A stretch of DNA of 61,634 nt from an uncultured Bacteroidota bacterium (GCA_903919065.1 CAIXHD010000293.1:1-61634), one strand, 5' to 3'; positions 5,995 through 61,634 are shown, counted from the first letter of the stretch. A program made the numbers and translations. Notes: generated by a model not told the origin, from the sequence alone.

Positions 5995-7839
5995 ATGAAA
6001 CTCTCCGGGAATTTTACTCTCCTTATCGGAATCGTTCTATTAACAACTTTTAGTTTCAAAATCCAAAGCCAGACTCTGCCAAAACAGTCTAATACCTGGT
6101 TCTCAACCGCGGGGGCCTGCCTGCCCTGCCATGATACGCATGTAACAGCATCAAGGGACAAATTGGGTAATGATGTTTCGCCTGTTTCTTCATGGCGAAG
6201 CACTATGCTGGCCAATGCATCCAAGGATCCATTCTGGCAAGCCAAGGTGAAACAGGAAGGAATCGAAAATCCGGCTCACAAGAGTGCTCTTGAAAATGTT
6301 TGTACCCGGTGCCATGCTCCAATGGGAATGATCAATGCCCTGCTCACCACTTCAGTCCCGTATAGCATGGATAATCTTAAGAACGATAACATGGGCAAGG
6401 ATGGTATCTCCTGCACCTTGTGTCATCAGATTAACGGATTCAGCTCCCCGCTATTTTCCGGGAACTTCGACCTAAACGCAGCAAAAGAAATTTATGGTCC
6501 GTTTACCAATCCCCTGATTAATCAGATGAGGATGAACACAGGATTTACACCGGTGCTATCCCCCAAAATAAATGAGTCGAGGCTTTGTGGATCCTGCCAC
6601 ACGCTTATTACAAATCCTGTAAATGAAAAAGATGAATTTACGGGTACAACGTTTGTGGAACAGGCCATTTATCAGGAGTGGGAAAATTCAGATTTCGGCA
6701 AACAGAAGATTTCCTGCCAATCCTGTCATATGCCAAGGATAGCTGAATCAGTAATTATCGCCAGCCAGCCTGGCTTTATAACCGGCCGGCAGCCATTCGG
6801 GCTTCATAACCTTACGGGTGGTAACCAGTTCATGCTCAAATTATTGAAAGACAATCACACGGAACTTCAACTTAATTCCGGAACTGACCTGATTCAGAAA
6901 TCCATCGACCGGACAAACAATTTTTTAACAACACAAACGATTGATCTGACCATAGGGGATATTCAAAAAACCCAGGATTCAGCATTTATAAATGTCAGGA
7001 TGATCAACAAGGCCGGGCATAAATTCCCATCGGGTTATCCCAGTCGGCGTGCTTATCTGGAATGTATTGTTACCAATGGCCAGGATACGGTTTTTCATTC
7101 CGGGAAAGCTGGTGCAAAAGCACTGACCAACATTGACCGAACCCGGTTCGAGCCGCATTACAATCTCATAACACGCGAGGAGCAGGTGCAGATTTACGAA
7201 TTTGTCATGGGTAATACCAGCGGCCAGGTTACCACAATTCTTGAAAAAGCCTATGTACCACTGAAGGATAACAGAATACCACCAAGGGGATTTGCCTCGT
7301 CGCATAACAATTATGATACCGTTAAAATTGTAGGGCTGGCAACCAAGGATGCTGATTACTTCAACGGACTGGGGCAGGAGATTATCCGATATGGATTACC
7401 GCTGTCCGATTTAGGCGATAATTCGACAGTAAAAGTTTTGCTGCATTATGAGAGCATTCCGGAACCCTGGACAGCAGAATTATTTTCTAAAGCCACGAGT
7501 GCCAGTGAAATTGAGTTATTCAGGGGTATGTATTTAAAATCGGATCGTACGGCCATTGAAATTGCATCAGTTTCCAGGCAAATCATAACCAGTTCGGCAA
7601 CCTTTATCCAGGATGAAGGATTCCGGATTTTTCCTAATCCAACTACCGGTTCAATAAACGTGGAGGGCACTGGCAGCTTCGACAAGTATTTTATCTACTC
7701 ATCAGATGGTCAATGTGTCAGATTTGGACAGATAAATACTGCACAGTTCTCAATGAACCTGGATTTGCCTTCTGGCACCTATTATGTTGTACTGCAGAAT
7801 CCAGAGAAAAAGAGGGTTGAAAAAATCATGTTATACTGA
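5995..7839 (+). CDS. secreted pentaheme c-type cytochrome with a T9SS C-terminal sorting domain
   Basis: Signal peptide MKLSGNFTLLIGIVLLTTFSFKIQSQ. Five CxxCH sites (CLPCH, CTRCH, CTLCH, CGSCH, CQSCH). The last ~75 aa (FRIFPNPTTGSINVEG...GTYYVVLQNPEKKRVEKIMLY) match the T9SS CTD pattern. Confidence 0.8.
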   Translation: MKLSGNFTLLIGIVLLTTFSFKIQSQTLPKQSNTWFSTAGACLPCHDTHVTASRDKLGNDVSPVSSWRSTMLANASKDPFWQAKVKQEGIENPAHKSALENVCTRCHAPMGMINALLTTSVPYSMDNLKNDNMGKDGISCTLCHQINGFSSPLFSGNFDLNAAKEIYGPFTNPLINQMRMNTGFTPVLSPKINESRLCGSCHTLITNPVNEKDEFTGTTFVEQAIYQEWENSDFGKQKISCQSCHMPRIAESVIIASQPGFITGRQPFGLHNLTGGNQFMLKLLKDNHTELQLNSGTDLIQKSIDRTNNFLTTQTIDLTIGDIQKTQDSAFINVRMINKAGHKFPSGYPSRRAYLECIVTNGQDTVFHSGKAGAKALTNIDRTRFEPHYNLITREEQVQIYEFVMGNTSGQVTTILEKAYVPLKDNRIPPRGFASSHNNYDTVKIVGLATKDADYFNGLGQEIIRYGLPLSDLGDNSTVKVLLHYESIPEPWTAELFSKATSASEIELFRGMYLKSDRTAIEIASVSRQIITSSATFIQDEGFRIFPNPTTGSINVEGTGSFDKYFIYSSDGQCVRFGQINTAQFSMNLDLPSGTYYVVLQNPEKKRVEKIMLY

Positions 7840-27725: not shown

Positions 27726-28259
27726 ATGGATATTTTTACCCAGAAAAAAATACTGGTACGCATTGTAATCGTACTTGCTTTGCTGAACCTGGTTTCCATT
27801 GGTGTTTTTTTGTGGAAGGCGGTCACGCCTCCTCCCCGACCAGCTTCTGAGACTGAGGCAACTGCTCCACCACGCGACGTATCAGCGATACTGGAAAAAG
27901 AATTGAACCTATCCCGTGAACAGGTGGATCAGATCAAAAATCTCAGGGCGGACTTTGCCGAAAAGGAAAAGAGTTTAGTTGAAGCCATCCAGAGAGAAAG
28001 GGACTCGATGAATCAGGAAATGTTCAATGCAAAAACAAACGAAGAGGTTATCCGTTCGCTGGCCGGGAAGATAGCGGAGAATGAATATAAGATGGAAATG
28101 CTCCGTTATGACCAGTCTCTACAGCTGAAAGCAATATGTACCCCTCAACAGGTAGAACAATTCGAAAAACTCGTTAGGGATATGCGTGATTTTTTTAAGC
28201 CTGATAACAAACCCGGACGTCAACCCAGAAAAGGCCCGCCGCGGAAGAGAGACGAGTAA
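27726..28259 (+). CDS. periplasmic Spy/CpxP-like (LTxxQ-type) protein with an N-terminal anchor
   Basis: TM/signal RIVIVLALLNLVSIGVFLW. LNLSREQVDQIKNL is LTxxQ-like. Helical body with a basic Pro/Arg-rich tail. The sigma / membrane protein / Spy-like triad is a common Bacteroidota arrangement. Confidence 0.5.
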   Translation: MDIFTQKKILVRIVIVLALLNLVSIGVFLWKAVTPPPRPASETEATAPPRDVSAILEKELNLSREQVDQIKNLRADFAEKEKSLVEAIQRERDSMNQEMFNAKTNEEVIRSLAGKIAENEYKMEMLRYDQSLQLKAICTPQQVEQFEKLVRDMRDFFKPDNKPGRQPRKGPPRKRDE

Positions 28260-28266
28260 CGAGTTA

Positions 28267-29934
28267 ATGATGCCAAATTATATGTCAAAGTCTTCGATCT
28301 TCAGTCTTCAGTCTCCAGTCTTCTGTCTTCTCTTAGTCTTCGGTCTTCCAGCCAAAGCCCAGACCTTCAATGAGATTCTTGGCCGGCCCACTGACACAAA
28401 AATGACAATCAGCATCCTGGCTGATCAGCGAACCGAGGTGTATTGGGAATATGGAACCACCACAGGCATCTATCCCAGCGTTACTGTTCACTTTATCATA
28501 GAAGATGGGGTCCCGCTCGAAGCCGACTTCACCGGGTTAAATCAGGATACAAAATATTTTTACAGAACCCGTTATCGCGCGGCTGGAACCACCTCCACCT
28601 TTTCAACCGGAGAGGAGCACACCTTTCATACTCAACGATCGTCAGGCAGCACCTTCACTTTCACGGTCGAGTCTGATGAGCATCTTTACGATAAAAAAGG
28701 GGTACGGAGCATTTACCAGATTTGCCTGGCCAATCAGGCAGCCGACCAGCCCGACTTTATGTTCTCACTTGGAGACACTTTCGGTGATGATCATACTCCG
28801 CTGACCACTACCTCTTCGGATATGGACCAGCTTCACAAGGATTACCGGCCCTATCTGGGGGTCATCTGTCATTCAGTGCCTTTTTTGTTCTGTCTGGGAA
28901 ATCATGAAGGGGAATTCAATTACTATTTAGGTCAGACACCACCCGATAATATTGGTATTTATGGAACTCTCTGGAGAAAATTCTATTATCCGAACCCGTT
29001 TCCGGATAGCTTTTACAGTGGCAATACCGAGGTTGAGCCCTACGGAATGGGTACCCCTGAAAACTATTATTCCTTCACCTGGGGTGATGCTTTGTTTGTT
29101 GTGATCGATGTTTACCGATATCAGTCGGCAACCTCTGCAAAACCGGGAAAATGGGACTGGACACTGGGCTATACGCAATATAAATGGCTCAGGAATGCGC
29201 TTGAAACCAGCAATGCAAAATATAAATTCGTTTTCGGGCATCATACCCTTGGACAGGGCAGAGGTGGCATCAATACGGCCAGGTTTTACGAATGGGGTGG
29301 CTATGAAGCCGACGGGGTAACCTGGGGATTTGATTCGAACCGGCCGGGCTGGGGCAAGCCAATTCACCAGTTGTTCGTGGATAACGGCGTGAATATATTC
29401 TTTCAGGGTCACGATCATTTGTTTGCGCATGAAGTTTTAGACGGTGTCGTTTATCAGGAGGTTCCTATGCCGAGCGATGCAACTTATCAGATTGGAATGC
29501 TGGCCAACGCCGGCGCCTACGTTTCTGATACCATCGGAGGGACAGGCCATTTAAAAGTTACCGTTTCTCCGGCTGATGTTACTGTGGACTTTGTAAGGGC
29601 TTTTCTGCCAGCCGATACTCTTAACGGCGTCCATCGCAATGGGGAGGTTGCATTCCGGTATTCCGTAAATCAGGGAACCTCCGGGATATATGCCAGCCCC
29701 ATAGAAACTATTTCGATTGACGTGTTCCCGAATCCTGCCCGTGACAGGTTATACATTGGGTTAAAAGACTCCACTGAAAAGATCCGGGTTATGATGTTCA
29801 GTCGTTCGGGACAGCGGATACTGGAAACCACATCTCATGAAATTGATGTTTCAGGTATTCCCGAGGGCATTTATGTATTGAAAATTGCTGTCGGATCGGC
29901 GATCGTACGTAAAAAATTCATCATCAGCCGGTAA
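28267..29934 (+). CDS. secreted metallophosphoesterase, purple-acid-phosphatase-like, with T9SS CTD (paralog 1)
   Basis: Start at ATG 28267 or 28282 (the ORF-track start at 28186 overlaps the upstream gene). Signal peptide. Fn3-like PAP N-domain (VYWEYGTTTG...TKYFYRTRYR). Metallophosphatase motifs SDEH, LGDTFGDD, LGNHEGE, FGHH and QGHDH. C-terminal VFPNPARDRLYIG...GIYVLKIAVG matches a T9SS CTD. Confidence 0.8.
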   Translation: MMPNYMSKSSIFSLQSPVFCLLLVFGLPAKAQTFNEILGRPTDTKMTISILADQRTEVYWEYGTTTGIYPSVTVHFIIEDGVPLEADFTGLNQDTKYFYRTRYRAAGTTSTFSTGEEHTFHTQRSSGSTFTFTVESDEHLYDKKGVRSIYQICLANQAADQPDFMFSLGDTFGDDHTPLTTTSSDMDQLHKDYRPYLGVICHSVPFLFCLGNHEGEFNYYLGQTPPDNIGIYGTLWRKFYYPNPFPDSFYSGNTEVEPYGMGTPENYYSFTWGDALFVVIDVYRYQSATSAKPGKWDWTLGYTQYKWLRNALETSNAKYKFVFGHHTLGQGRGGINTARFYEWGGYEADGVTWGFDSNRPGWGKPIHQLFVDNGVNIFFQGHDHLFAHEVLDGVVYQEVPMPSDATYQIGMLANAGAYVSDTIGGTGHLKVTVSPADVTVDFVRAFLPADTLNGVHRNGEVAFRYSVNQGTSGIYASPIETISIDVFPNPARDRLYIGLKDSTEKIRVMMFSRSGQRILETTSHEIDVSGIPEGIYVLKIAVGSAIVRKKFIISR

Positions 29935-31750: not shown

Positions 31751-32422
31751 ATGAAGAAATACTATTTAATGCTGCTGACTGCTCTGGTTCTATCAGCAAT
31801 ACCCGTATCCCTGAATGCTCAAACCGATGAATATTCGCTGAGGACTTCTGCCAATATCGGGATAAAACTCGCTAAAGGTTTGGCATTGGAAATTGCCCCC
31901 GAATACCGGTTCAATCCGGCAACGAATGCAAGTGAGTACCTGATGGAAGCCGGATTAAGCTACAGGATAATATCCTGGCTGAGCGTCGGAGGCTACTATC
32001 GCCTCGACGGTTCAAAGGTAACCGACATGGAAGGTACTGGCGGATCGTCATTTGAAACCTCTAACCGCTTTTCTTTTGATGCCAGTACTAAAGTCAGCAT
32101 AAAAAGGTTTACGCCGAAATTCAGGGTGCGCTTCTGCAATTTCACTGATTTCGATAAATCAACAGACGATAAGACCAATTATATGCGCTACCGGATCGGG
32201 CTCGACTATAATATCAAAGATTTTAAGCTTACTCCCTTCGTTTCCGCTGAATTTTACCAGAAACTGAGCACCGGCCTGTTTAGCCAGTCGCGGTATACCA
32301 TTGGCGGTGAATATGAATTAAATAAGAAGAATGCGATAGTTTTAAGTTATTCATTATCTGATAAATATAAAACACTGGACAGCTATCACATCTTTGAGCT
32401 TTCCTACAAAATCAAATTTTAA
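31751..32422 (+). CDS. outer-membrane beta-barrel protein, DUF2490-like
   Basis: Signal peptide. Repeated amphipathic strands ending in Y/F/R, with a terminal FELSYKIKF. Size and pattern fit DUF2490; this assignment is from memory only. Confidence 0.4.
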   Translation: MKKYYLMLLTALVLSAIPVSLNAQTDEYSLRTSANIGIKLAKGLALEIAPEYRFNPATNASEYLMEAGLSYRIISWLSVGGYYRLDGSKVTDMEGTGGSSFETSNRFSFDASTKVSIKRFTPKFRVRFCNFTDFDKSTDDKTNYMRYRIGLDYNIKDFKLTPFVSAEFYQKLSTGLFSQSRYTIGGEYELNKKNAIVLSYSLSDKYKTLDSYHIFELSYKIKF

Positions 32423-32433
32423 GGCAAATCCGT

Positions 32434-33777
32434 ATGAAGCTATATCTCAAACTTACCATACTTCTCATCCTGGCATATGCTTATGGCTGCGAAAAGCCCG
32501 ATGTCACGATCACCATTGAAACACCCGACTGGACCGAGGCTACCCATGGGATTGCCGTGGAACCAGATTATGCAACCGCTTTTCCGCAGGATAAAGTTCA
32601 GCGGCTGGATATTGTCATCGGCAGCACCAACTGGGCTGCCATTCAAAAGGATCTTGCCGGCATGCCAGGCGGTGGTCCGGGGCAGACTCTTGATGGTACT
32701 TTTGATCCGATCTGGGTTGACTGCGATTTTCATTTCAACGGGAAACAATGGTATAAGGTCGGAATCCGGGTCAAGGGCAATTCAAGTCTGCGTACCACCT
32801 ACCAGCAGGGAATTAAGAAATACTCTTTTAAGCTTGACTTTGATCAGTGGGAGGGCACCTATCCGGCTATTCAGGATCAGCGGTTCTACGGATTCAAACA
32901 ATTAAACCTGAACAATAATTTTGATGATAAGTCACTGATGCGTGAGAAGGTAGCCGGTGACCTTTTCCGGGAATTCGGGGTTCCCTCAGCGAAATCCTCA
33001 TTTTATGAAGTATATATCGATATTGGAAACGGATCGCAATATTTCGGATTGTACACATTGGTGGAAGAGGTGGATAATACAGTTCTGAAAACACAATTTG
33101 CCGATGGTACAGGCAACCTCTACAAACCTGAAGGAACAGCAGCGAGCTTTGCTGCAGGTTCCTGGGATACGACTGATTTTTACAAGAAAACCAATACTGC
33201 TGCAGGTGATTACACAGATATCCGCGCATTGTACGATGCTATCAATAGCAGCTTGCGAACCTCTGATCCCGCTGCGTGGAGAGTTCTGCTGGAATCATCG
33301 ATGAACATGGATCAATATCTTAAATGGTTAGCTTCTAATACCGTTATGCAGGACTGGGATACTTACGGACGGATGACTCATAATTTTTATCTGTATAACG
33401 ACCCAACTCAGGCAAAGTTAGTCTGGATTCCATGGGACAACAACGAAGCACTTCAAGACGGCAAACAGGGTGGAGCCATCAATCTCGACCTGAGCGGTGT
33501 CACTAGTCAGTGGCCTCTGATTAAATACATAGCGTCCGATGAGGTATATTACGCTCAATATAAACAGTACGCCAAGGATTTTGCCTCCACGGTTTTTTCC
33601 CCGGAAAAGATTACTGCCACCTACGACTACTATTATAATATCATAAAAACCTCTGCAACGAGTGAGGTTTCGGGCTATACCTTTCTGCGAAACGGGATAA
33701 GCGATTTCGATGCTGCAATTTCACAGCTAAAAACACAGGTAAAACAACGATATTCGCTGGTAAATAAATTGAATTAA
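32434..33777 (+). CDS. CotH-family atypical kinase lipoprotein
   Basis: Lipobox AYAYGC. CotH hallmarks: VRVKGNSSLR, KKYSFKLDFD, FKQLNLNNNFDDKSLMREKVAGDLFREFGVP and HNFYLYND. Confidence 0.7.
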   Translation: MKLYLKLTILLILAYAYGCEKPDVTITIETPDWTEATHGIAVEPDYATAFPQDKVQRLDIVIGSTNWAAIQKDLAGMPGGGPGQTLDGTFDPIWVDCDFHFNGKQWYKVGIRVKGNSSLRTTYQQGIKKYSFKLDFDQWEGTYPAIQDQRFYGFKQLNLNNNFDDKSLMREKVAGDLFREFGVPSAKSSFYEVYIDIGNGSQYFGLYTLVEEVDNTVLKTQFADGTGNLYKPEGTAASFAAGSWDTTDFYKKTNTAAGDYTDIRALYDAINSSLRTSDPAAWRVLLESSMNMDQYLKWLASNTVMQDWDTYGRMTHNFYLYNDPTQAKLVWIPWDNNEALQDGKQGGAINLDLSGVTSQWPLIKYIASDEVYYAQYKQYAKDFASTVFSPEKITATYDYYYNIIKTSATSEVSGYTFLRNGISDFDAAISQLKTQVKQRYSLVNKLN

Positions 33778-33779
33778 TC

Positions 33780-34199
33780 ATGAGAATCACAGTATCTCTT
33801 ATCTTACTCCTGAGCCTGGCGCCCTTTTGTTTGCAAGGCCAGGAACTTTCGAGAAAAGAAGCCTCCAAAGCAAAGGTTAAATCGGTATCCGTTTTTGAAA
33901 CAAACGTATCCGACAAGAAGGCTAAACCCATTCTCGAAAGCATGAACCGGTACGATGAATCAGGTAACCTGCTGGAGATTCTCGAAAAAGATAAGAACGG
34001 TGTGGTCACCCTTCATGAGAGCTATGAATACAATTCCGAAGGGCAGAAGTCTGTTGAGATTCAATATGAGCCGGATGGCAAAATCAAGAAAAAGAACGTT
34101 TTTAAATATTCCGATGGTCTCCGTTCGGAAAGGCAAACATTTGATAAAAACGGCGCTTTGATTTCACAGCGGAAGTACGTTTACGAGTTCAACAAATAA
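33780..34199 (+). CDS. small secreted protein with YD/MORN-like short repeats (hypothetical)
   Basis: Signal peptide. Repeated Y(D/E)xxG(N/Q/K) turns (RYDESGNLLE, YEYNSEGQKS, YEPDGKIKK, FDKNGALIS). Confidence 0.5.
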   Translation: MRITVSLILLLSLAPFCLQGQELSRKEASKAKVKSVSVFETNVSDKKAKPILESMNRYDESGNLLEILEKDKNGVVTLHESYEYNSEGQKSVEIQYEPDGKIKKKNVFKYSDGLRSERQTFDKNGALISQRKYVYEFNK

Positions 34200-34987
34200 T
34201 GGTTCAACTGATTCAAGATACTTTGCAGGCGTTGAAGCCAATTACGCTGGCCGAGATGGATTCCGTCAAACTGATGTCGCGGTCGGATGAAAAGTATCTT
34301 TGTCGGATCGATCAGTTGCCCGATCTGCTCAAATTGGCACAGCGCGATTTTCAGGTGCTTGAAAATGTTGGAAAACGAATTTTTGGGTATGAATCGATGT
34401 ACCTGGATACTCCCGGTCATGAAATGTACCTGGCCCATCACAATGGAAAACTAAACCGTTACAAAGTCCGGATCAGGGAATATCAGGAAACCGGGGAAAC
34501 ATTTTTTGAAATCAAATTCAAGAACAATAAAAGGGAAACCGGGAAAAAGAGAACCGCAATCAATTCCGATCGCGATTACGGCTCCACCAGCATCCGTACT
34601 TTCATGAAGAAGCACTCTCCTTATCTGCCGGAGATGCTTCAGCCGGTTCTGTATTCATCGTTCAAACGCATCACCCTGGTTAACAAAATGCTCGCGGAGA
34701 GGATAACGATCGATTTAATCCCGGCCTGGCAATTCGAAGGCCGGTCGGCAAGCCTGCCCCGTGTGGTGGTTATGGAAGTGAAATCCTCACGACCCTCCGG
34801 TTCCTCTGGCTTTGGATACCTGCTTCGCGAGGCGAGAATCATGCCCCGCAGAATAAGTAAATATTGTATCGGCACAGCACTTCTCTACCCGGAAATAAAG
34901 CACAACAGATTTAAGTCGAAATTATTGGAATTAAATAAGTTAAATAAAAGTATAACATATCATGAACCAAATCATGCAGTTGTTTAA
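34199..34987 (+). CDS. VTC-domain (triphosphate-tunnel, polyphosphate-polymerase-like) protein, cytoplasmic
   Basis: Its ATG overlaps the upstream TAA. No signal peptide. Tunnel-strand motifs: KYLCRI, YESMYLDTP, YKVRIREY, FFEIKFK, RITIDL and VVMEVKS. Confidence 0.7.
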   Translation: MVQLIQDTLQALKPITLAEMDSVKLMSRSDEKYLCRIDQLPDLLKLAQRDFQVLENVGKRIFGYESMYLDTPGHEMYLAHHNGKLNRYKVRIREYQETGETFFEIKFKNNKRETGKKRTAINSDRDYGSTSIRTFMKKHSPYLPEMLQPVLYSSFKRITLVNKMLAERITIDLIPAWQFEGRSASLPRVVVMEVKSSRPSGSSGFGYLLREARIMPRRISKYCIGTALLYPEIKHNRFKSKLLELNKLNKSITYHEPNHAVV

Positions 34988-35654
34988 TTCGGATATTTTG
35001 ACCGGATTCATCCAGGTTGCCGATCAGGGCATTGAGGCAGTAAAATTTCTCAATATTAAAATTCTGAATCCAACGGATTTCTACAACCTGATATTAAGGT
35101 TTGCTTTCAATATGCTGGCGACAGTAATTCTGGTCAGGTTTCTATATTATCCACATTCCAAAAGAAAAGACTACTTCTTCATTTTCATGATCTTCAGCAC
35201 TATAGTTTTTCTGCTGTGCTTTTTACTTGGAAAGGTTTCTGTCCAGATGGGGTTTGCACTCGGCCTTTTTGCCATATTCGGAATACTGAGGTACCGGACC
35301 GATACCATACCCATCAAGGAAATGACTTACCTGTTTCTGATGGTTGGAACTTCGGTGATCAATTCACTATCTGACAAAACTGTAAGCTGGGCTGAACTGG
35401 TATTCGCCAATGCAATAATCATTTTGATTACCTGGTATCTCGAACGGGTATGGATGCAGAAGAAGGAGGGTTTTATGGATATCCGATATGAGAAAATCGA
35501 ACTCATCCACCCTTCGCGCCGTGAAGAATTAATGGAGGATCTGAAAAAACGAACGGGCCTGAATGTTTACCGTATAAGCATCGACCGGGTAAATTTCATG
35601 AAGGATACTGCACGGGTTAGAATATTTTATCGCGAGGATGTGCCAGAAATCTGA
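34962..35654 (+). CDS. DUF4956-like polytopic membrane protein
   Basis: Overlaps the VTC gene end by 26 nt (or starts at the MQLFNS Met at 34974). Four to five TM helices followed by a ~70-aa soluble tail. The pairing with VTC and CotH matches an arrangement I recall as recurrent. Confidence 0.6.
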   Translation: MNQIMQLFNSDILTGFIQVADQGIEAVKFLNIKILNPTDFYNLILRFAFNMLATVILVRFLYYPHSKRKDYFFIFMIFSTIVFLLCFLLGKVSVQMGFALGLFAIFGILRYRTDTIPIKEMTYLFLMVGTSVINSLSDKTVSWAELVFANAIIILITWYLERVWMQKKEGFMDIRYEKIELIHPSRREELMEDLKKRTGLNVYRISIDRVNFMKDTARVRIFYREDVPEI

Positions 35655-42254: not shown

Positions 42255-44159
42255 TTAGACCAATCTCGAGAACCGGGCATTTGATTTTGGAAAATCAACC
42301 CCCATGGCGAAAAAAGAAAGAAGTCCCAATATTATCGCGGCAACCGGAATTTCCCATCCGAATTTAGGGTGCACATCTACCACCTTCACCGGGATCATGG
42401 TGAAGCAAACCCCGATCAGTCCCGATGCTATGGCCGTCCACTGATAAAGATGGAGCCCGTCCAGAATGGGAGTTTGAACCTCTCCACGATAGGCCTCCTC
42501 CACAAAACGACCTATCCCGCTTAAAATCAGGTAAATTCCGAAAATAAAGGAATAGGGCATGCGACTCTGCCAGAGGGCCAGCATTACAAACCCCATCAAG
42601 AACAACCACACGATTGAGTAAAGCGGCGTGGGATGAATCAATTTTCCCTTCAGCCCCGACAGGCCACATACCCGGGTACGATCATGAAAATACCGGATTC
42701 CCAGACGGTCATCGTCCGTCGGCCGGCCATGACAGCATCCGTTTGCCAGGCAGCGAAACCGGCCGATTGCCTGCACCCAGGGCATCAGAACAGCTGCCAA
42801 TCCAATCATCAGCCAGACATTATACCCCATGAGCCATAAAATCAATCCGGCAAAAATGATTCCCACAATGGCCCCGTAATAACCGAAAGGACGTTTCAAT
42901 TTATCCGATCCTTCCACCAGCTGAGCCCAGACAGCAGAACAGACCATAAGCACCACTGCAAAAATCAAAATAGGCCATGCATATTCTCGCCCGGCCAGCC
43001 ATCCGGCGAACATGATTCCGAAAATGGCTCCAAATCCGATAATGAAAGCGTGGTTTATAATTCTCACGGGACCGAAAACCCACTCCTTCCAGGAGTTCGC
43101 CAACCTTTCCGCTAGATTTTTCAATTGTATCCAGATCCTCGAATAATTCACAGCCATAACATATATGGTCAGAGAAACCAGCAGATGGAGGTCGGACGAC
43201 CGACTATGAGCCAACTGAACAATGATCAGTAAAGCGACAAAGACAGTCAGGAGAATTCTGTATCGCTTAAACTGGCGGTCATAAGCGTTGTGAGAAAGAA
43301 GAATCAGGAAGAGCGGTATGCTCCCGAAAAGGAATGCCATTTTCTCCGGCACACTGCCAGCGAGGTCAATGGTGGTTAAATACTGTGCTCCGACAGACGG
43401 CCACAAAAGGGAAATGAAAAGCGATAGTCCCAGTCCAAACAATACCCTGATTGTCCATTCCTTTAATAAATCCTCTCTTTTCAGCAAAAAGGGAACCCCA
43501 ATCACAAATACCAGGCTGACAAAGCAAAGATTTCTATTTTCAAAAATCGAATGAAAATCCCATGCCTTACCCATCAATGGAGCAACTCCTCCCACCAGAA
43601 ATCCGGTTATGAAATTCCCTCCCACCAATATCAGAACCACAATGAACAGGGCAGGTAACCGGTCGGTCAAGCCAACCTCACGCATTTCTTCTCCGCCAAT
43701 ATCAAAGAAAGTCCTGATTTTCTGTCCGGGAAACCGTTGTTCCAGGCCTATCTTTTCATATCCCCATACCAGTGCAACCATGGACATAATGGTCACAGGC
43801 GTCACCAGCCATAATCCGCTGGCTGATCCTGCAGCAATTGACGTCCCGCAGACTGCTATACCAAAACCCCAGTATATTGGATGTCTGACGATGCGAAAAG
43901 GTCCTTCAGCAACCAGTTTTTTCGGTGGATAGGGATTCATCGGCAGTCCTTTGCCAAATCGGACAATGGTTAACATTCCCCAGATAATCAACACAACACC
44001 GATAATCAGGATACTGATTCCCACGGGTAAAGATTCTATCGGGGGAAACTTAATGAATGGAGCAGTGAGTTTTGCCCAAAACCAGAGCAATACAGGAATT
44101 ACTGCATTAAAAATCAGTGCATAAAGGACTTTCCCTAAAACTGGATTTATTTTTTTCAT
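42255..44159 (-). CDS. 634-aa polytopic fusion: ICMT/phospholipid-methyltransferase-like N-terminus + Lgt (prolipoprotein diacylglyceryl transferase)-like C-terminus
   Basis: N-terminal GPFRIVRHPIYWGFGIAV is the ICMT/PEMT-family motif. C-terminal GRFRCLANGCCHGRPT aligns to the Lgt signature GR-x-G-N-F-x-N-G-E-x-x-G, with Cys replacing N and E. More than 12 predicted TM helices. The start overlaps the upstream stop by 4 nt. Confidence 0.6.
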   Translation of the reverse strand: MKKINPVLGKVLYALIFNAVIPVLLWFWAKLTAPFIKFPPIESLPVGISILIIGVVLIIWGMLTIVRFGKGLPMNPYPPKKLVAEGPFRIVRHPIYWGFGIAVCGTSIAAGSASGLWLVTPVTIMSMVALVWGYEKIGLEQRFPGQKIRTFFDIGGEEMREVGLTDRLPALFIVVLILVGGNFITGFLVGGVAPLMGKAWDFHSIFENRNLCFVSLVFVIGVPFLLKREDLLKEWTIRVLFGLGLSLFISLLWPSVGAQYLTTIDLAGSVPEKMAFLFGSIPLFLILLSHNAYDRQFKRYRILLTVFVALLIIVQLAHSRSSDLHLLVSLTIYVMAVNYSRIWIQLKNLAERLANSWKEWVFGPVRIINHAFIIGFGAIFGIMFAGWLAGREYAWPILIFAVVLMVCSAVWAQLVEGSDKLKRPFGYYGAIVGIIFAGLILWLMGYNVWLMIGLAAVLMPWVQAIGRFRCLANGCCHGRPTDDDRLGIRYFHDRTRVCGLSGLKGKLIHPTPLYSIVWLFLMGFVMLALWQSRMPYSFIFGIYLILSGIGRFVEEAYRGEVQTPILDGLHLYQWTAIASGLIGVCFTMIPVKVVDVHPKFGWEIPVAAIILGLLSFFAMGVDFPKSNARFSRLV

Positions 44160-55069: not shown

Positions 55070-55573
55070 TTATTCCTGCATAAATATTACCGAGAAAGTA
55101 CCGGAATAATTTCCGGCCGGAGCAACATTGAAACTCAGGGTACCTCCGATATTTACCCCGGTATATTCACCCATGGCTACAAACGGGGAAACCGGATAAG
55201 GAGTACCCAGAGTCAGGGTTAGAATAGCACCTCCCGGTCCAGTTAATTCAGCAGGTATTCCGGTATCGATGTGGATAAAGGTGCCTGGTAATGCGGTAAC
55301 AATAAAAAGCGCAGCCGAAGCGCCACTGCCTATAAGATAAACATTTCCTGCGGTGGTGCGATTTCCATAAGTATCAACGGTAATGGTTTTCGCGCCATCT
55401 GCTCCAACACAAAAGCTGCCAAATTCCAGACTTTGCATAATGTATACCTTCACTGAAATCGGCTTCGGTGGTTTTTGCTGAGCCCGGGCAGGTGCATAGA
55501 ATACAAATGAACAAGCTATTATAATAAGAGGCACCAACAACCTCCGTATCGATTGTTGAGTTTGTCTATTCAT
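55070..55573 (-). CDS. DUF4402-like (spore-coat-protein-U/SCPU-like) secreted subunit
   Basis: Signal peptide ending ARAQQ. MQSLEFGSF...ITVDTYGNRTTAGNVYL...AALFIVTA...GGTLSFNVAPAGNYSGTFSVIFMQE fits the DUF4402/SCPU pattern. Its start overlaps the adhesin stop by 8 nt. Confidence 0.5.
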   Translation of the reverse strand: MNRQTQQSIRRLLVPLIIIACSFVFYAPARAQQKPPKPISVKVYIMQSLEFGSFCVGADGAKTITVDTYGNRTTAGNVYLIGSGASAALFIVTALPGTFIHIDTGIPAELTGPGGAILTLTLGTPYPVSPFVAMGEYTGVNIGGTLSFNVAPAGNYSGTFSVIFMQE

Positions 55574-58500
55574 AATTTAATCTCATTAATAATTTTTCAG
55601 ATTGGACTCTTGTGGCCGATCTGACAGTTAAAATATAAAGTCCTGCAGTTACGTTCGGATCGATCTGAACTGTTTCACTGCCAAAAACCGGCCTTTGCAG
55701 TACTATCTGACCCGACGTATTCATAAGCAAAAGGTCTCCGCCTGTGTTATAAGGAAGATTAACCCTGATCAATAACAGATTCCCGGAACGGTAAATAGCA
55801 AACAGAGTTTTAACTATCTGCGCCGGATTCTCCAGTTCCGTCTTTGAAAAGACCAGTGAAAAGCGCCGGTTATACTCTCCTGCTTTAAGGTCAATCCTGT
55901 ACTCAGGATTCTCCTGGAGATCCTGGAGTACACTCTTTTCAGCATCCAGTAAATACAAATGGAGTCCATATGGAAGTTCACTGATATCTTTCGCATTAAA
56001 CACAATCCTGCCTGATTTCAGAGTATGTATCCCTAAAGGAATCTCGGTGATACTGTCGGTAATACTGGGCAGTCCATTGATTGAAAGCTGCTTCGATTCT
56101 AGTGAGAAAGTATACAAATTCGGGACGGTAGGATCGGTATTCTTTAACTTAAGGGCATCCTGCGCTTTATCAAAACTCAGCGTAGAACTAGCATCAAAAT
56201 ACATAAGAGCAACATCTTCAACCGCCTGTTCAGATTCCAGATAAGCCGTAAAGCGAAGAATCTCCCGCGGATCATATTTTACTTTCTTGAATGATGGATT
56301 CAGATCGTTGACCCTGACAGAATTGGATACTCCAAGAACACCATCAACGGGTGAAGTACTGTTCACATGAACGAAAAATCCCTGCATCGAAGCGATAACA
56401 TTATCTCCGTTTCCGGTTCCTGTTCCATTTATGTAAGTCGTATAGGTACCCTGATACTGGACGGAATCATCCGCCAGTGCGTCGCCGGTGGCAGCGCTTG
56501 CATTAAAGAAATAAAGGGCATCATCAATATTTGTTTTCGTCCAGCCGGAGGCATCCCAATCAATTGGCGATGGATACGGATTCCCCACCAGATTATATCC
56601 CTGGGTAAAAGTACGGTTATGGTTCTGCAGTGTTTTTGACAGGGAACCATTCGTAACCACCCCGGTCATGTCAGCAGTTTTTACCGATGTAACTTTTCCA
56701 AAATTCGCTGCATAACCTTCTAATGGATTCAGCGCTCCGAACAGGGAGGTGTAGGTGGTCCAGCCCGACATATCTACCGGCGGATCCGTATTGGTTCTGT
56801 GGTTCTCATCGTATTTATAGAAGGTCGGGAAAGTGGCGGTCACATCAATATCATCAGAAAACTCACTCACCGTGGCAGACTGGAACGGAGAGCTGAAATA
56901 TTTATAGCCAAAAGCTGTCGGCAGGTAACGCTGCATGGTTACACTCCCAACTACATCACCCGAACCGGCACCATCAATCAGTGCAGTTTGTGTGGCTGTT
57001 GAAATCAAGGTCAGATTTCCATTTGATGTCAGATTTCCGGCCTGGGCTTTTACTATGCCGGTTACATTTAATTGTCCAAGCAAAGTAGCTCCGTCGGAAT
57101 TATTTACTGTCAGATGCAGAATCGTGTTGGTAGCAAAAACACCAGCTCCGATGGTTTGCACAGCTGAGCCCTTCATCTCAATGGTTCCTGCTGTGGCATT
57201 AAAAGTTCCGCTGTTGGAAATGTCGCCTGCAATCTTTAAAGTATTACCGATTACGGTCAGAGATGAACCTGATGCCAGGGTGATATCCTTGGCCAGTCCT
57301 GCAACACCTGAATTAAGTATCGGATCATTGGTAACATCCGGAATGGTAACGTTTGTGGTCAGGTCAGGAACAACCTGGCACGACCAGTTCCCGGCTGTAT
57401 TCCAGTCGTTACTCACATTTCCAGTCCAGATCAGGTCGTGGATAATGATCACATCAAAGGTGGTGGAATATTCGCTGCAACCACCATAAGCTGCAATGGT
57501 ATAGGTTACCGTATAAGTACCTGCGGTGCTTGAAGACGGGGTAATGGCACCTGTTCCCGGATCAATGGTCAGACCGGCCGTGGAACTGTAGGAACCTCCG
57601 GCAGTGCCGGTTCTGGTGACGGATTGTGCACCAACCACACTTGTACAGAATGGTGTACTGTAAGATATGGAGGCATTGGGCTGAGGCGTTACCGTGATAA
57701 CCCTGGAATTGGAATTAACCGGTCCGCAGGAGCCACTGGAAATGGCACAGTAAAAGGTTGCGCTTGCCGTGAGTGCATCCGGGGTATAATCCTGAGTGGT
57801 TATGCCGGTAGAAACTCCGTCTTTGTACCAGAGATAAGTATAGGTACTGTTTCCTCCGCCACCCGTAGCAGAAAAGGTTCCGGGTCCGGAATTGTAACAT
57901 ATAGGAGTTGATCCGCCGGTAACAGATGCTGTTAACAAAGGATACACCGTGATGGTTGTAGTGGATGTATTGACTGTGCCGCAGGAACCGCTTGTTATGG
58001 CGCAGTAATAACCTGTTGTTGAGGTCAGGCTGCCCGGACTGTAAGTCTGGCTGGTAGCTCCGCTAATAATACCTGTTGTGGTATACCATTGGTAAGTATA
58101 GGATCCGGTGCCGCCGCTCCCGGTTGCAGTAAACATACCCGGTGATCCGTTATAGCACAATGGTGAGGTGCCGCCGCTGATTCCTGCAGTAAGGTTCCCA
58201 AATACAGTTATTGTTGTAGTTGTCGTATTTACTGTTCCGCAGGTTCCGCTGGTTACCGCACAATAATATCCGGTGGTGGAAGTGAGGTTACCCAGACTGT
58301 AGCTTGCGTTTGTTTCACCGCTGATAATCCCTGAAGTGGAATACCATTGGTAGGTATAGGATCCGGTTCCGCCACTGCCTGAAGCTGTTAGTGTTCCGGC
58401 ATCAGTATTGTAGCAGATGGGTGATGCCCCACCGCTGATTCCGGCTGATAAAACAGGATTAACTGTGATAGTGGTTGTGGATGTATTTACTGTTCCACAT

Positions 58501-61500
58501 GTTCCACTTGTAATTGCGCAATAGAAGGTTGATGTTTCCGTAAGGCTACCCGGTGCATAATTTTGAGTGGTAATGCCGGTTGATGATCCGTTTTTATACC
58601 ACAGATAGGTATAGGTCCCGTTTCCTCCGCTTCCGGTGGCTGTAAATGTTCCCGGAGCTGTATTATAACACAAAGGAGTTGTACCTCCGCTTATAGCTGC
58701 AGAGAGGTTCCCATAAACGATTATAGAAATGGTATTAGTGGTCACATTTCCGCAGGATGCATCGGTGACAACACAATAAAAACTTGCTGAGGCTGTCAGG
58801 TTGCCCGGATCATAAGTTTGGGTGGTAACTGAGGTTGAAACCCCATCTTTATACCACAGGTAATTATGCGAACCTGCTCCACCACTGCTTGAGGCAGTCA
58901 GAGTTCCGGGATTTAAATTATAGCATAAAGGAGAGGTCCCGCCGGTGATCGAGGCAATTAAATTAGCGCGAACAGTAATGGTAGTTGTAGGGGTGTTCGC
59001 TGTTCCACAAGAGCCGGTACTGGTTACAGCACAGTAATATCCGGTGGTTGTGGTCAGACTTCCCGGACTGTAGGTTGCATTTGTCTGGCCTGAGATGATT
59101 CCTGCCGTAGAATACCATTGATAGGTATAGAATCCTGTTCCGCCTGCGCCTGTTGCAGTAAGCGTTCCTGCTGAAGTCCCGTAGCATATAGGGGTATTGC
59201 CACCACCGATACCGGCTGTAACATTTGGATAAACGGTTATCGTGGTTGTGGCGGTATTCAGCGTTCCGCAGGTACCACTGGTGATTGCGCAATAGAAAGA
59301 GGAGCTGGAAGTGAGTGCACCGGGAGTATACGTTGAAGTTGTGACTCCCGTTGATGTTCCGTTTTTATACCACAGATAAGTATAAACCCCGGTTCCGCCC
59401 CCTCCCGTGGCAGTAAATGTTCCGGGTGCACCACCATTACACAGTGGTGTTGTTCCGCCGCTGATATCTGCCGTTAAAGCAGAATTTACCAGAATTGTAG
59501 TGGTAGGTGTACTAACAGTTCCACAAGAGCCGCTCGTTACTTTACAATAATAACCGGTGGTCAGGGTAATATTCCCCGGAGTATAGGTTGAATTAGTTGC
59601 ACCATTGATTATCCCTGTGGTCGTCCACCATTGATAAGTATAGGACCCGGTACCTCCGGTTGCAGATGCCGATAATGGTCCGGGTGAGGTATTGAAGCAA
59701 ACAGGAGTTGAGCCACCGCTGATATTGGCGGATAAATTACTATAAACAGTGATGTTGATCGTATTTGAATTCACGGTTGAGCAGTTGCCGCTCGTTATAG
59801 CACAGTAAATGGCCGAGGTCGCGGTCAGGTTCCCGGGAGTATAAGTTTGTGTAGCAACCCCTGTCGACACACCGTTTTTGAACCACAGATAGGTATAAGC
59901 GCCATTACCGCCACCCCCTGCTGCTGTCAAAGTTCCGGGAGCAGTATTGTAGCAAAGCGGGGTTGTGCCACCACTGATAGAGGCTGTTGTAACAGGATAA
60001 ACCACAAATGCTCCGGAAACTGCGCTGGTTACCGCCGGGCCACAAGTTCCGGTGACCGTACAATAATAATAAAGTGTTCCGGCAACTGAAGCCTGAGGAG
60101 TGTAGGTGTTTGTCTGGGCACCATTAGCAGCGCCGAGTGATGAGCCTCCGGTATTACTTGCACTGGTATTGCTGAACCATTGGTAGCTCAGCCCGGCCCC
60201 GGTTGCAGTTACTGAAATCGGTGAGAACGATCCGTTAATACAGGTGGACTGTGCTCCGGTTGATTGGCTCGAAATGGCTGTTAAACCACTGATCACAATG
60301 CTGATGGAATTGGTGGTGCTCACACAACTGTTTGCACTGTTTTTGACAAAAAGACTACCGTAATAGGCTCCTGCAGGCGCACCGCCAGGAACTGTTATTG
60401 ATATCTGACTGGCAGGCAACGTGGTTATGGCAACGTTTACAAAACCATTGGAAAGAGCGGTTTCATCGAAAGTAATACTGTATTGATTTGCTCCTCCCGT
60501 GGTTGTGCTGTAACTCAGGGTAGCGGTTGCAGCCCCATAACAAATAGCCGGTATGGCAGTATAGGTTATGGTTGGCAAAGAATATGCCGTGGCAATAACT
60601 TCAGAGCGGGTGGAGGTGGTACATCCGTTGTTGGTCCCATCTACCCAATAAGAGGTGGTGGTACTGATTGTTGGTGTGGTAAAATCATTTCCGGTACCAA
60701 TCGGGCTGCCACCTGTCTGAGCTGCGTACCAATTTACTGTTCCGGTACTTGCGGCAGCATGGAGGGTTACTGTTCCCGATCCGCAAATTACACCATGTGT
60801 GATACTCTGAATGGTTGGTGTGGCATATACGACAGCTGTAACGGCCAGGCGGGCAGGAGATTCACAGTAGCCATCGGTCCGACTCGCATAATAAGTGGTA
60901 CCATTAACCAGGTTCGTGCTTGCAGGTACAACGGAGCCTCCGCTGGCGGCATTGTACCAGATAATTCCTGTACCGGTTACATAGAGATTACTGACTTTCG
61001 GGCCATTGATACTGCAAAAGCTCTGGGTGGCGTTGCCGGTAGGAGGATCCGTATAATTCACAGTCAGTGTCGGCTGATCGGTCAGATCGGCTGTACTGCA
61101 TCCGCTGGCCGAAGTAGCAACCACTTTATAGGTATAGGATGTTGTAGTTACCGGAGTTGGAATATTTGCCTGAAGCATGGTCAGGCTAAGATCACTGCCA
61201 GTTCCGGTACCCGTACTTAATGATGTACCAGCGAGTGTTTTTAATTCATAATGGACACCACTTTGGGCAGCAGTAATTGTAAAAGCAGCATTCCCTCCTG
61301 CCGGATTACAAACCGAAGCATCCGATACGGTGAGGCCAGTGGTGATTGCCGCATCGGCAGCCGGCTGGGTCACTGTAAAAGTAAAGGCATCACTGACCAC
61401 GTTGTTTGCATCAGTCACCACCAGGTTATACGTTCCTGCAGTAAGTCCTGTCTGATCCTCGGCTGTGGCATTCAAACCACTGCCACCAGAGGTGGTCCAT

Positions 61501-61634
61501 GCATAGGTATATGGTGCAACTCCCTTTGTTACAGACACATTTATCGCCCCATTGGCATCTCCGTTACAGGTAACATTGGTAATAGCCGCTGTAGCTTCCA
61601 TGGCCGGATCACCAGTGAGGGTAACATCGTCAAA
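55566..61634 (-). CDS. giant repeat adhesin (longer than 2011 aa; N-terminus beyond window edge) with SprB-type repeat, Ig-like modules, nine 85-aa tandem repeats and a T9SS CTD
   Basis: The frame is open to the window edge (..[21 protein letters not shown]). [27 protein letters not shown] is a SprB-type repeat. WY(N/A)A..GG.. Ig-like modules follow, then 9 x ISGG.TP.CYN...GT(L/F)TA.G.GG.G.YTY(L/Q)W repeats. The C-terminal [17 protein letters not shown]...[10 protein letters not shown] matches the CTD pattern. Confidence 0.85.
   Translation of the reverse strand, partial: [2022 protein letters not shown]
57700..59995 (-). repeat. nine tandem ~255-bp (85-aa) coding repeats in two interleaved subtypes
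   Basis: Subtype A carries YTYLW(Y/F)K(N/D)G. Subtype B carries YTYQW(Y/W)(S/T)T.GII(S/N)G. The order is A B A B A A B B A. Boundaries were checked at the DNA level, e.g. [15 protein letters not shown] at about 59745 and [10 protein letters not shown] at about 57690. Confidence 0.8.

Follow-up and report, generated by a model that had tools for sequence, protein, structure and literature searches.

In eukaryotes, the VTC complex polymerizes polyphosphate (polyP) from ATP in a triphosphate-tunnel domain and feeds the chain through its own transmembrane (TM) subunits. The canonical bacterial route to polyP relies on PPK1 and PPK2, soluble or peripheral cytoplasmic enzymes that share the expected product with VTC, are unrelated to it in fold and mechanism, and for which we know of no dedicated export partner. 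Here we analyze a 61,634-nucleotide (nt) stretch of DNA from an uncultured Bacteroidota bacterium (GCA_903919065.1 CAIXHD010000293.1:1-61634, hereafter the window), in which positions 31,751 to 35,654 encode a VTC-domain protein and a DUF4956 membrane protein together with three exported proteins. The feature is real and widespread, and its best-supported reading is that of a bacterial, split variant of the VTC synthase-translocase, with a non-homologous channel and optional envelope modules.

Like the eukaryotic complex, the window enzyme has the catalytic Pfam family and fold, and it retains 8/9 of the residues on which yeast depends for polyP synthesis, K458 included. As in eukaryotes, it is also obligatorily tied to a multi-helix membrane partner with conserved basic residues on the cytoplasmic side, which in yeast form the K24/R31 rings of Vtc1 (bioRxiv 10.1101/2023.01.27.525886). 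Unlike its eukaryotic counterpart, the enzyme has neither the SPX inositol-pyrophosphate sensor nor the C-terminal three-helix membrane domain, and its membrane partner DUF4956, unrelated to Vtc1 as far as can be detected, is encoded by a gene of its own. The target would be the periplasm or the cell surface rather than the vacuole, and the bacterial clusters add an outer-membrane barrel and CotH kinases that have no eukaryotic counterpart.

Related gene sets have been described in other bacteria. The genes for CotH, a polyphosphate polymerase, DUF4956 and DUF4832 are accessory genes beside Gram-positive pel operons, where CotH was suggested to regulate Pel via protein phosphorylation (Whitfield et al. 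2020, PMC7112168), and the C. perfringens locus NELoc-2 carries two VTC genes and CotH (PMC11677781). The window holds the same three families contiguously, in a Bacteroidota (diderm) version. Unlike the pel-linked set it lacks pel genes and DUF4832, adds a DUF2490 barrel and a small repeat protein, and lies amid type IX secretion system (T9SS) cargo genes behind an extracytoplasmic function (ECF) sigma factor. An earlier note on this DNA, made from the sequence alone, had held that the co-occurrence of VTC, DUF4956 and CotH was visible in annotations; the association was already in print, and the note was right that no function had been assigned to it there (PMC7112168). New here, beyond this published gene association, are a residue-level catalytic case, synteny counts from both sides, gene fusions with DUF4956 as their hub, and a membrane topology. 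In B. thetaiotaomicron, BT3498-99 are DUF4956 and DUF2490; a literature search for the locus tags of this bacterium found nothing.

The locus consists of five genes, with protein lengths in amino acids (aa):

31751..32422, + strand: predicted outer-membrane beta-barrel of the DUF2490 family (223 aa; Sec signal peptide; C-terminal ...YKIKF)
32434..33777, + strand: CotH-family kinase, predicted lipoprotein (447 aa; lipobox-like …AYG/CEKPD)
33780..34199, + strand: small exported repeat protein (139 aa; signal peptide and five Y-x-x-x-G hairpin-like repeats)
34199..34987, + strand: VTC-domain triphosphate-tunnel enzyme, cytoplasmic, predicted polyphosphate polymerase (262 aa)
34962..35654, + strand: DUF4956 inner-membrane protein (230 aa; 4-5 TM helices; soluble C-terminal domain)

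In the open reading frame (ORF) listing of the window, the successive junctions measure +11, +2, -1 and -26 nt, exactly the 11-nt gap, 2-nt gap, 1-nt overlap and 26-nt overlap that the earlier note had given; the last is the overlap of the DUF4956 start with the VTC stop. The four Pfam domains that it had named (VTC, DUF4956, CotH and DUF2490) all score well above their gathering thresholds, and its readings of a leaderless VTC protein, a CotH lipobox and signal peptides on DUF2490 and the small protein, all taken from the sequence, were correct. NCBIfam yielded a model for none of the five proteins. The window is Bacteroidota-like, with uncultured Bacteroidetes/Porphyromonadaceae metagenome-assembled genomes (MAGs) as closest relatives.

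The VTC protein matches the Pfam family VTC (PF09359) over profile positions 2-235 of 235 (E=1.6e-23, 83.9 bits against a cut-off of 23). It consists of this domain alone, with no other Pfam match and no hydrophobic segment or leader, and contains the strands YKVRIREY, FFEIKFK and VVMEVKS, all three of which had been picked out beforehand. Its AlphaFold model (pLDDT 89.8, pTM 0.87) has yeast Vtc4 as top Foldseek match in the Protein Data Bank (PDB; entries 3g3r, 8i6v_E and 3g3q, E 9e-14 to 2e-13, TM-score 0.62), followed by Vtc3 and Vtc2, with other triphosphate-tunnel metalloenzymes (TTMs; e.g. YgiF, 1.6e-9) at 1.6e-9 or worse. Single-sequence and profile hidden Markov model searches of the protein against PDB sequences did not reach Vtc4.

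Yeast Vtc4 holds the triphosphate with K200, R264, R266, K281, R361, K458, S457 and Y359 and Mn2+ with E426; mutation of any of the eight triphosphate-binding residues leaves less cellular polyP, and the inactive Vtc2 and Vtc3 differ at one position only, having Ile or Leu in place of K458 (bioRxiv 10.1101/2023.01.27.525886). The triple mutant R264A/R266A/E426N serves as the standard catalytically dead VTC complex (PMC9911596). We aligned the bacterial family profile to a Vtc4 sequence that agrees with 8i6v_E residues 189-480 at 100% identity, using a permissive hhalign run; global and default local hhalign runs were unusable. In this mapping Vtc4 R196 corresponds to window VTC R28, K200 to K32, R264 to R91, R266 to R93, E279 to E104, K281 to K106, K294 to K116, Y359 to F155, R361 to R157, R373 to R168, E426 to E193, K428 to K195, S457 to S220 and K458 to K221, the last two within an S220-K221-Y222 motif. 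Across 180 distinct homologs from 200 loci, with invariance judged where the sequence is complete, the mapped positions are invariant except for the one equivalent to Y359 and for R168, which is Lys in 5 and Ser in 1; K221 is Lys in 178/178 complete homologs. An alignment to Vtc2 independently recovers the same blocks, with which Pfam and Foldseek are consistent. Conservation of the tunnel Lys, Arg and Glu residues, on which the earlier note had staked its proposal in advance, is therefore found, and the proposal stands on this point. Judged from its sequence, the window VTC agrees with an active Vtc4 at every point that can be tested except Y359, and it probably makes polyP.

The pairing of this enzyme with DUF4956 was counted from both sides. 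Among 80 reference-genome loci retrieved with the VTC profile and annotated with phmmer, DUF4956 lies immediately downstream of VTC on the same strand in 79. A genome scan for R-Y-R-T-x-x-I-P-[IV]-K-E-M gave 120 matches, all of them DUF4956 genes; 107 of these were assessable, having at least 1 kb of upstream sequence, and VTC is directly upstream in 95 and nearby in 2 more (one in reverse order, still overlapping). The pairing is asymmetric, as VTC is almost never without DUF4956 and about one in ten DUF4956 genes has no VTC nearby. At the junction the two genes overlap in 56/78 pairs and are separated by a gap of at most 30 nt in 20 more. Given the recurring VTC to DUF4956 adjacency (79/80 and 95/107 loci), the gene arrangement is far beyond chance, so that the second point on which the earlier proposal could have failed, gene co-occurrence, also came out in its favor.

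ORF clustering of the 80 loci recovered VTC in 80, DUF4956 in 77, DUF2490 in 50, a small Ig-like protein in 26, a LytTR regulator in 24, the small repeat protein in 20, CotH in 19, an M20 peptidase in 14 and a LytS-type kinase in 11. The LytTR regulators (24/80) and LytS-type kinases (11) flank the pair; the window has the ECF sigma factor instead. The pair is found across several bacterial phyla and in one archaeon. On RefSeq-annotated replicons of cultured organisms, Deinococcus taeanensis has CotH-VTC-DUF4956, and Aminobacter has the reverse order DUF4956-VTC, overlapping, followed by a phytase-like esterase and close to an ECF sigma/anti-sigma pair. The order CotH-VTC-DUF4956 recurs in a spirochaete MAG; Methanospirillum carries VTC and DUF4956 alone. 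In an Oceanispirochaeta MAG (L129 5832-6794, - strand), two ORFs flanked by CotH and DUF4956 encode the N- and C-terminal halves of a split VTC, which is either a pseudogene or the product of a frameshift in long-read assembly. The VTC-less DUF4956 loci, viewed as 8-kb chunks, are L094, L113, L128, L160, L170, L176, L179, L185, L191 and L193; neighbors there include a sulfatase, an SBF transporter and an M20 peptidase, and in L113 a Lamin-tail-domain protein followed by DUF2490. In these loci DUF4956 may hold a VTC-independent role, or VTC may be encoded elsewhere.

The DUF4956 protein belongs clearly to its Pfam family (E=4.8e-51, 173.3 bits against a cut-off of 30.6), which comprised 2,024 representatives at 50% identity in an exhaustive profile search. 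In the family alignment the core GFALGLFAxFGIxRYRTxxIPIKEMTYLF is almost invariant and includes the loop R110-Y-R112-T...K119-E120. Further invariant polar residues are D39 and R46 on the first helix and E145, N150 and E161 on the last, and N50 on the first helix is kept in at least 90% of sequences. Among close relatives, DUF4956 is better conserved than VTC. The AlphaFold model (pLDDT 75.6) has five hydrophobic helices, in line with the 4-5 TM helices read from the sequence beforehand, and a C-terminal beta-alpha-beta-beta domain (about 170-224).

Gene fusions constrain how this protein sits in the membrane. They were sought among the length outliers of the DUF4956 profile search and with a query made of an artificial VTC+DUF4956 concatenate, and three kinds were found. 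Two VTC::DUF4956 fusions (P0241, P0498) are complete and carry the full catalytic set. DUF4956::DUF2490 occurs as a 90%-identity cluster of 36 members from many independent assemblies (P0402; the 15 listed are all 460 aa) and as a singleton (P0417). DUF4956::CotH occurs on a 714-kb contig, where three more CotH genes follow (P0365). The junctions keep the signal peptide of the partner (MQRTCVLVALMGLFVTVGYA/QQ; MKKYLKILLLFTGFSFGLSQMQA/Q) or its lipobox (…FFFLSSC/DY), which places the C-terminus of DUF4956 in the cytoplasm and the partners outside it as exported proteins. The positive-inside rule agrees: charge counts over the family assign the C-terminal domain, loop 63-71 (KRK) and loop 110-120 (RYR..K) to the cytoplasmic side. 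The VTC::DUF4956 fusions would need the N-terminus to be cytoplasmic too. All topology data are consistent if helix 39-62 lies at the interface, giving a 4-TM, N-in/C-in DUF4956. Whether 4 or 5 helices cross the membrane, the C-terminal domain and the basic loop end up on the side where VTC works.

Two further fusion candidates, P0333 and P0348, were rejected. They are internal-deletion chimeras that have both Pfam domains and lack the last catalytic strands of VTC, the DUF4956 part being joined from the first hydrophobic helix (P0333) or from the Gly-rich third helix (P0348), and are probably pseudogenes or misassemblies. As for the surroundings of the fusions, L205 5325-11919 encodes a YaiO/TPR-like protein, VTC, a DUF4956::CotH fusion and then three tandem CotH paralogs, a striking multiplication of exported CotH beside the pair, and L203 3708-9322 shows a DUF4956::DUF2490 fusion in the order Cthe_2159-family protein, VTC, fusion, LytS-type histidine kinase and LytTR regulator.

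DUF2490 is the most frequent companion of the pair, its gene following DUF4956 in 50/80 loci. The window protein matches the Pfam family (E=3.9e-15, 56.5 bits against a cut-off of 29.8), with weaker OMP_b-brl/Porin_4 matches, starts with a Sec-type leader (MKKYYLMLLTALVLSAIPVSLNA/Q) and ends in an aromatic residue (...KIKF). DUF2490 is listed as TCDB 1.B.81, a putative porin most members of which have Sec leaders. In 51 cluster-linked proteins conservation reaches 80% or more at R53, R84, R106, R125, R146 and R181, at E51 and E167 and at several Tyr, and the six arginines are spaced about one per strand. This pattern is compatible with an anion-selective lumen or with a buried charge network such as a 2026 preprint describes.

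The CotH protein (Pfam CotH, PF08757, E=1.4e-63) starts with MKLYLKLTILLILAYAYG/C, a lipobox-like sequence. It shares the CotH Pfam domain and the pair of catalytic Asp with the Bacillus CotH spore-coat kinase: the B. cereus protein (5jd9) is matched with E=3.8e-15, and D309 and D335 align with the Asp residues of the QNFD and PWD motifs, 23 residues apart. From this spacing they would correspond to the catalytic D228/D251 of B. subtilis. Both are kept in 20-21 of the 23 cluster-linked CotHs, the remainder being gaps and one Glu; CotH itself is present in 19-22/80 loci. In the cluster-linked CotHs of about 470 aa the lipoprotein Cys is followed by acidic residues, a stretch which we take to resemble the Bacteroidota surface-export signal. 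Bacillus CotH acts with ATP on coat proteins in the mother-cell cytoplasm (PMC7821199). Unlike it, these cluster-linked CotHs carry a lipoprotein-type leader, and a T9SS sorting domain was found in the long form that was scanned (L051); they would therefore act where ATP is not expected.

The small repeat protein gave only sub-threshold MORN_2/RHS_repeat matches in Pfam. It has a Sec-type leader (MRITVSLILLLSLAPFCLQG/Q), its conserved residues are D59, G62, Y70, G74, Y84, Y96, Y110, G113, D122, G125, Y133 and Y135, and homologs lie directly upstream of VTC in about 20/80 loci.

From these data we infer a conserved two-gene core, VTC plus DUF4956, in which the soluble cytoplasmic VTC would polymerize polyP from ATP. 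Translationally coupled to DUF4956, it would work docked on that protein, whose small C-terminal domain and invariant basic loop (RYRTxxIPIKE) would both point into the cytoplasm. DUF4956 probably oligomerizes into a conduit that would take the growing chain across the inner membrane, as a functional, non-homologous counterpart of the Vtc1/3/4 membrane ring. DUF2490, the exported CotH and the small periplasmic repeat protein would be optional modules that receive, pass on or use the exported polymer. We give this core model, polyP synthesis plus export, an even chance of being correct. For exported kinases with no obvious ATP supply, a linked source of polyP would make an attractive donor; that CotH actually uses exported polyP seems doubtful to us. 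A complete trans-envelope route is likewise improbable: here VTC synthesis and a DUF4956 oligomer across the inner membrane would be continued by an Arg-lined DUF2490 across the outer one, with the polymer serving as phosphoryl donor for CotH or as a covalently attached product.

These possibilities matter since bacterial polyP biology rests on PPK1/PPK2 and intracellular granules, and a recent preprint shows that the question of extracellular sources is open. PPK-independent extracellular polyP is abundant in the Bacillus cereus group, its synthase and export route being unknown, and B. cereus lacks a VTC4 homolog (bioRxiv 10.64898/2026.08.04.742738); the extracellular polyP of B. cereus is therefore not explained by VTC-DUF4956. 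The pair is nonetheless a concrete candidate source elsewhere, with about 2,000 DUF4956 clusters at 50% identity in several phyla and at least one archaeon, and the ties to exported CotH kinases and Pel biofilm loci suggest roles in surface or matrix chemistry. A non-homologous membrane partner, if true, would be an independent solution for moving a highly charged polymer through a membrane. The complete trans-envelope route, if true, would explain extracellular protein or glycan phosphorylation without ATP and would provide a PPK-independent, export-dedicated path to extracellular polyP.

Several points weigh against polyP synthesis and export by the pair. We found no paper that tests or explicitly proposes this function for the two bacterial proteins. 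For the enzyme, the hhalign probability of the Vtc4 mapping is only 6%, because the template is a single sequence, and at the Y359 position 157 of the 180 homologs have F, 20 have Y and 1 has L; in yeast Vtc4, Y359F lowers polyP (bioRxiv 10.1101/2023.01.27.525886). For the membrane protein, the monomer model has no visible pore. Foldseek returned no match to it below E=0.03 and a sequence-profile search of the PDB, VTC cryo-EM entries included, none at E<=5; with no relative in fold or sequence there, DUF4956 is no detectable homolog of Vtc1 or of any solved transporter. The term split analogue of VTC, used in the earlier note, therefore holds only in function, as DUF4956 has no sequence or fold similarity to the Vtc1-type domain. 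The VTC::DUF4956 fusions are singletons, so they could be sequencing artefacts, and they need helix 39-62 to be non-spanning, on which hydropathy does not decide. Ten of the 107 assessable DUF4956 loci have no nearby VTC, so a neighboring VTC is dispensable for DUF4956, which may rely on a copy farther away or on none. As to the envelope modules, the CotH kinases already known use ATP.

The alternative that survives best accepts that VTC makes polyP and reduces DUF4956 to an anchor or regulator. The polymer would then stay in the cytoplasm as a membrane-attached granule or store, and DUF2490 and CotH would be linked to the pair otherwise, e.g. through an envelope-stress regulon. The poreless DUF4956 model, unlike any transporter, would suit such a protein, as would its C-terminal domain, which Foldseek finds weakly like ACT-like regulatory folds; the cytoplasmic RYR..K loop and this domain fit docking or regulation as well as the mouth of a channel. 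However, an anchor or regulator does not account for the exported partners to which DUF4956 is joined or adjacent again and again, namely an outer-membrane barrel and lipoprotein or T9SS CotHs, and a plain anchor needs no Gly-rich helix and charged loop that are invariant throughout the family. Moreover, the only characterized VTC system couples synthesis to membrane transit (PMC9911596). We consider this alternative unlikely.

A second alternative questions the polymerase itself. VTC could be a tripolyphosphatase or a nucleoside triphosphate triphosphohydrolase or cyclase, and DUF4956 could move phosphate, pyrophosphate (Pi, PPi) or a nucleotide for the exported CotH or the barrel. TTM enzymes are diverse, and YgiF, CYTH cyclase-like proteins and thiamine triphosphatase are likewise among the fold matches of the model; Phe takes the place of Y359, and the SPX regulation and covalently attached membrane domain of eukaryotes are absent. 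Yet the Vtc4/3/2 domains lead the other fold matches by an E-value margin of about four orders of magnitude, the polymerase-specific K458 position, lost in Vtc2/3, is an invariant Lys, and Pfam puts the protein in VTC, not in CYTH, all of which makes a non-polymerase improbable. That the five genes are chance or shared-promoter neighbors without interdependence, or an anti-phage defence island, is hardly credible: although the window order DUF2490-CotH-small protein-VTC-DUF4956 differs from the commonest one and CotH and the small protein are each found in only about a quarter of loci, the idea is contradicted by synteny, the same gene set being kept in varied orders across phyla, and by the fusions that join its components, and the defence version was rejected as PADLOC models match none of the five proteins.

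In the window, the five genes belong to a co-directional run headed by the ECF sigma factor, an anti-sigma-like protein and a Spy/CpxP-like protein. A terminator scan found no + strand terminator within 31.6-35.7 kb. The sigma-70 promoter scan gave fewer promoter-like sites than shuffles, and a strict search for the Bacteroidota -33/-7 motif gave no match ahead of 31751. The window yielded nothing in scans with Rfam and for tRNAs, and no ppk or ppx gene is present among the window ORFs scanned.

The earlier note had also drawn the T9SS metallophosphoesterases upstream of the locus into the system. This part was not borne out as a general feature: relatives occur in only a handful of the 200 related loci, and these genes are therefore local context, with at most a local involvement. 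The mechanical GTG start of the first of them (28186-29934) overlaps the Spy/CpxP-like gene (27726-28259) by 74 nt; the real start is probably an internal Met just before the signal peptide MSKSSIFSLQSPVFCLLLVFGLPAKA. Phosphoesterases of gene families different from those of the window adjoin the pair in two loci from distant lineages, an Ank+Metallophos protein in L081 10001-14310 and the phytase-like esterase in L207 5400-7712 (Aminobacter pSR1).

Other genes of the window were noted in passing. A dense island of T9SS cargo on the + strand (17037-41469) encodes at least 8 proteins with Por_Secre_tail, and includes a 1249-aa Fib_succ_major protein, an esterase, the two metallophosphoesterases, an Lcl_C+FGE-sulfatase protein and three arylsulfotransferase-like beta-propeller proteins. 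At 5995-7839 (+) a 614-aa protein combines multihaem cytochrome c motifs with a T9SS C-terminal sorting domain; its c7/c3/MtrC-like matches are weak, below the Pfam curated cut-offs except for Paired_CXXCH_1, and it is possibly a T9SS-secreted multihaem cytochrome. An unusual fusion of a PEMT/ICMT-like methyltransferase with an Lgt domain is encoded by a 634-aa ORF at 42255-44159 (-); a stand-alone PEMT-like gene is found in L081. Finally, 55566-61601 (-), reaching nearly to the window end, encodes a 2011-aa SprB-repeat/Ig_7 protein of the gliding-motility adhesin type.

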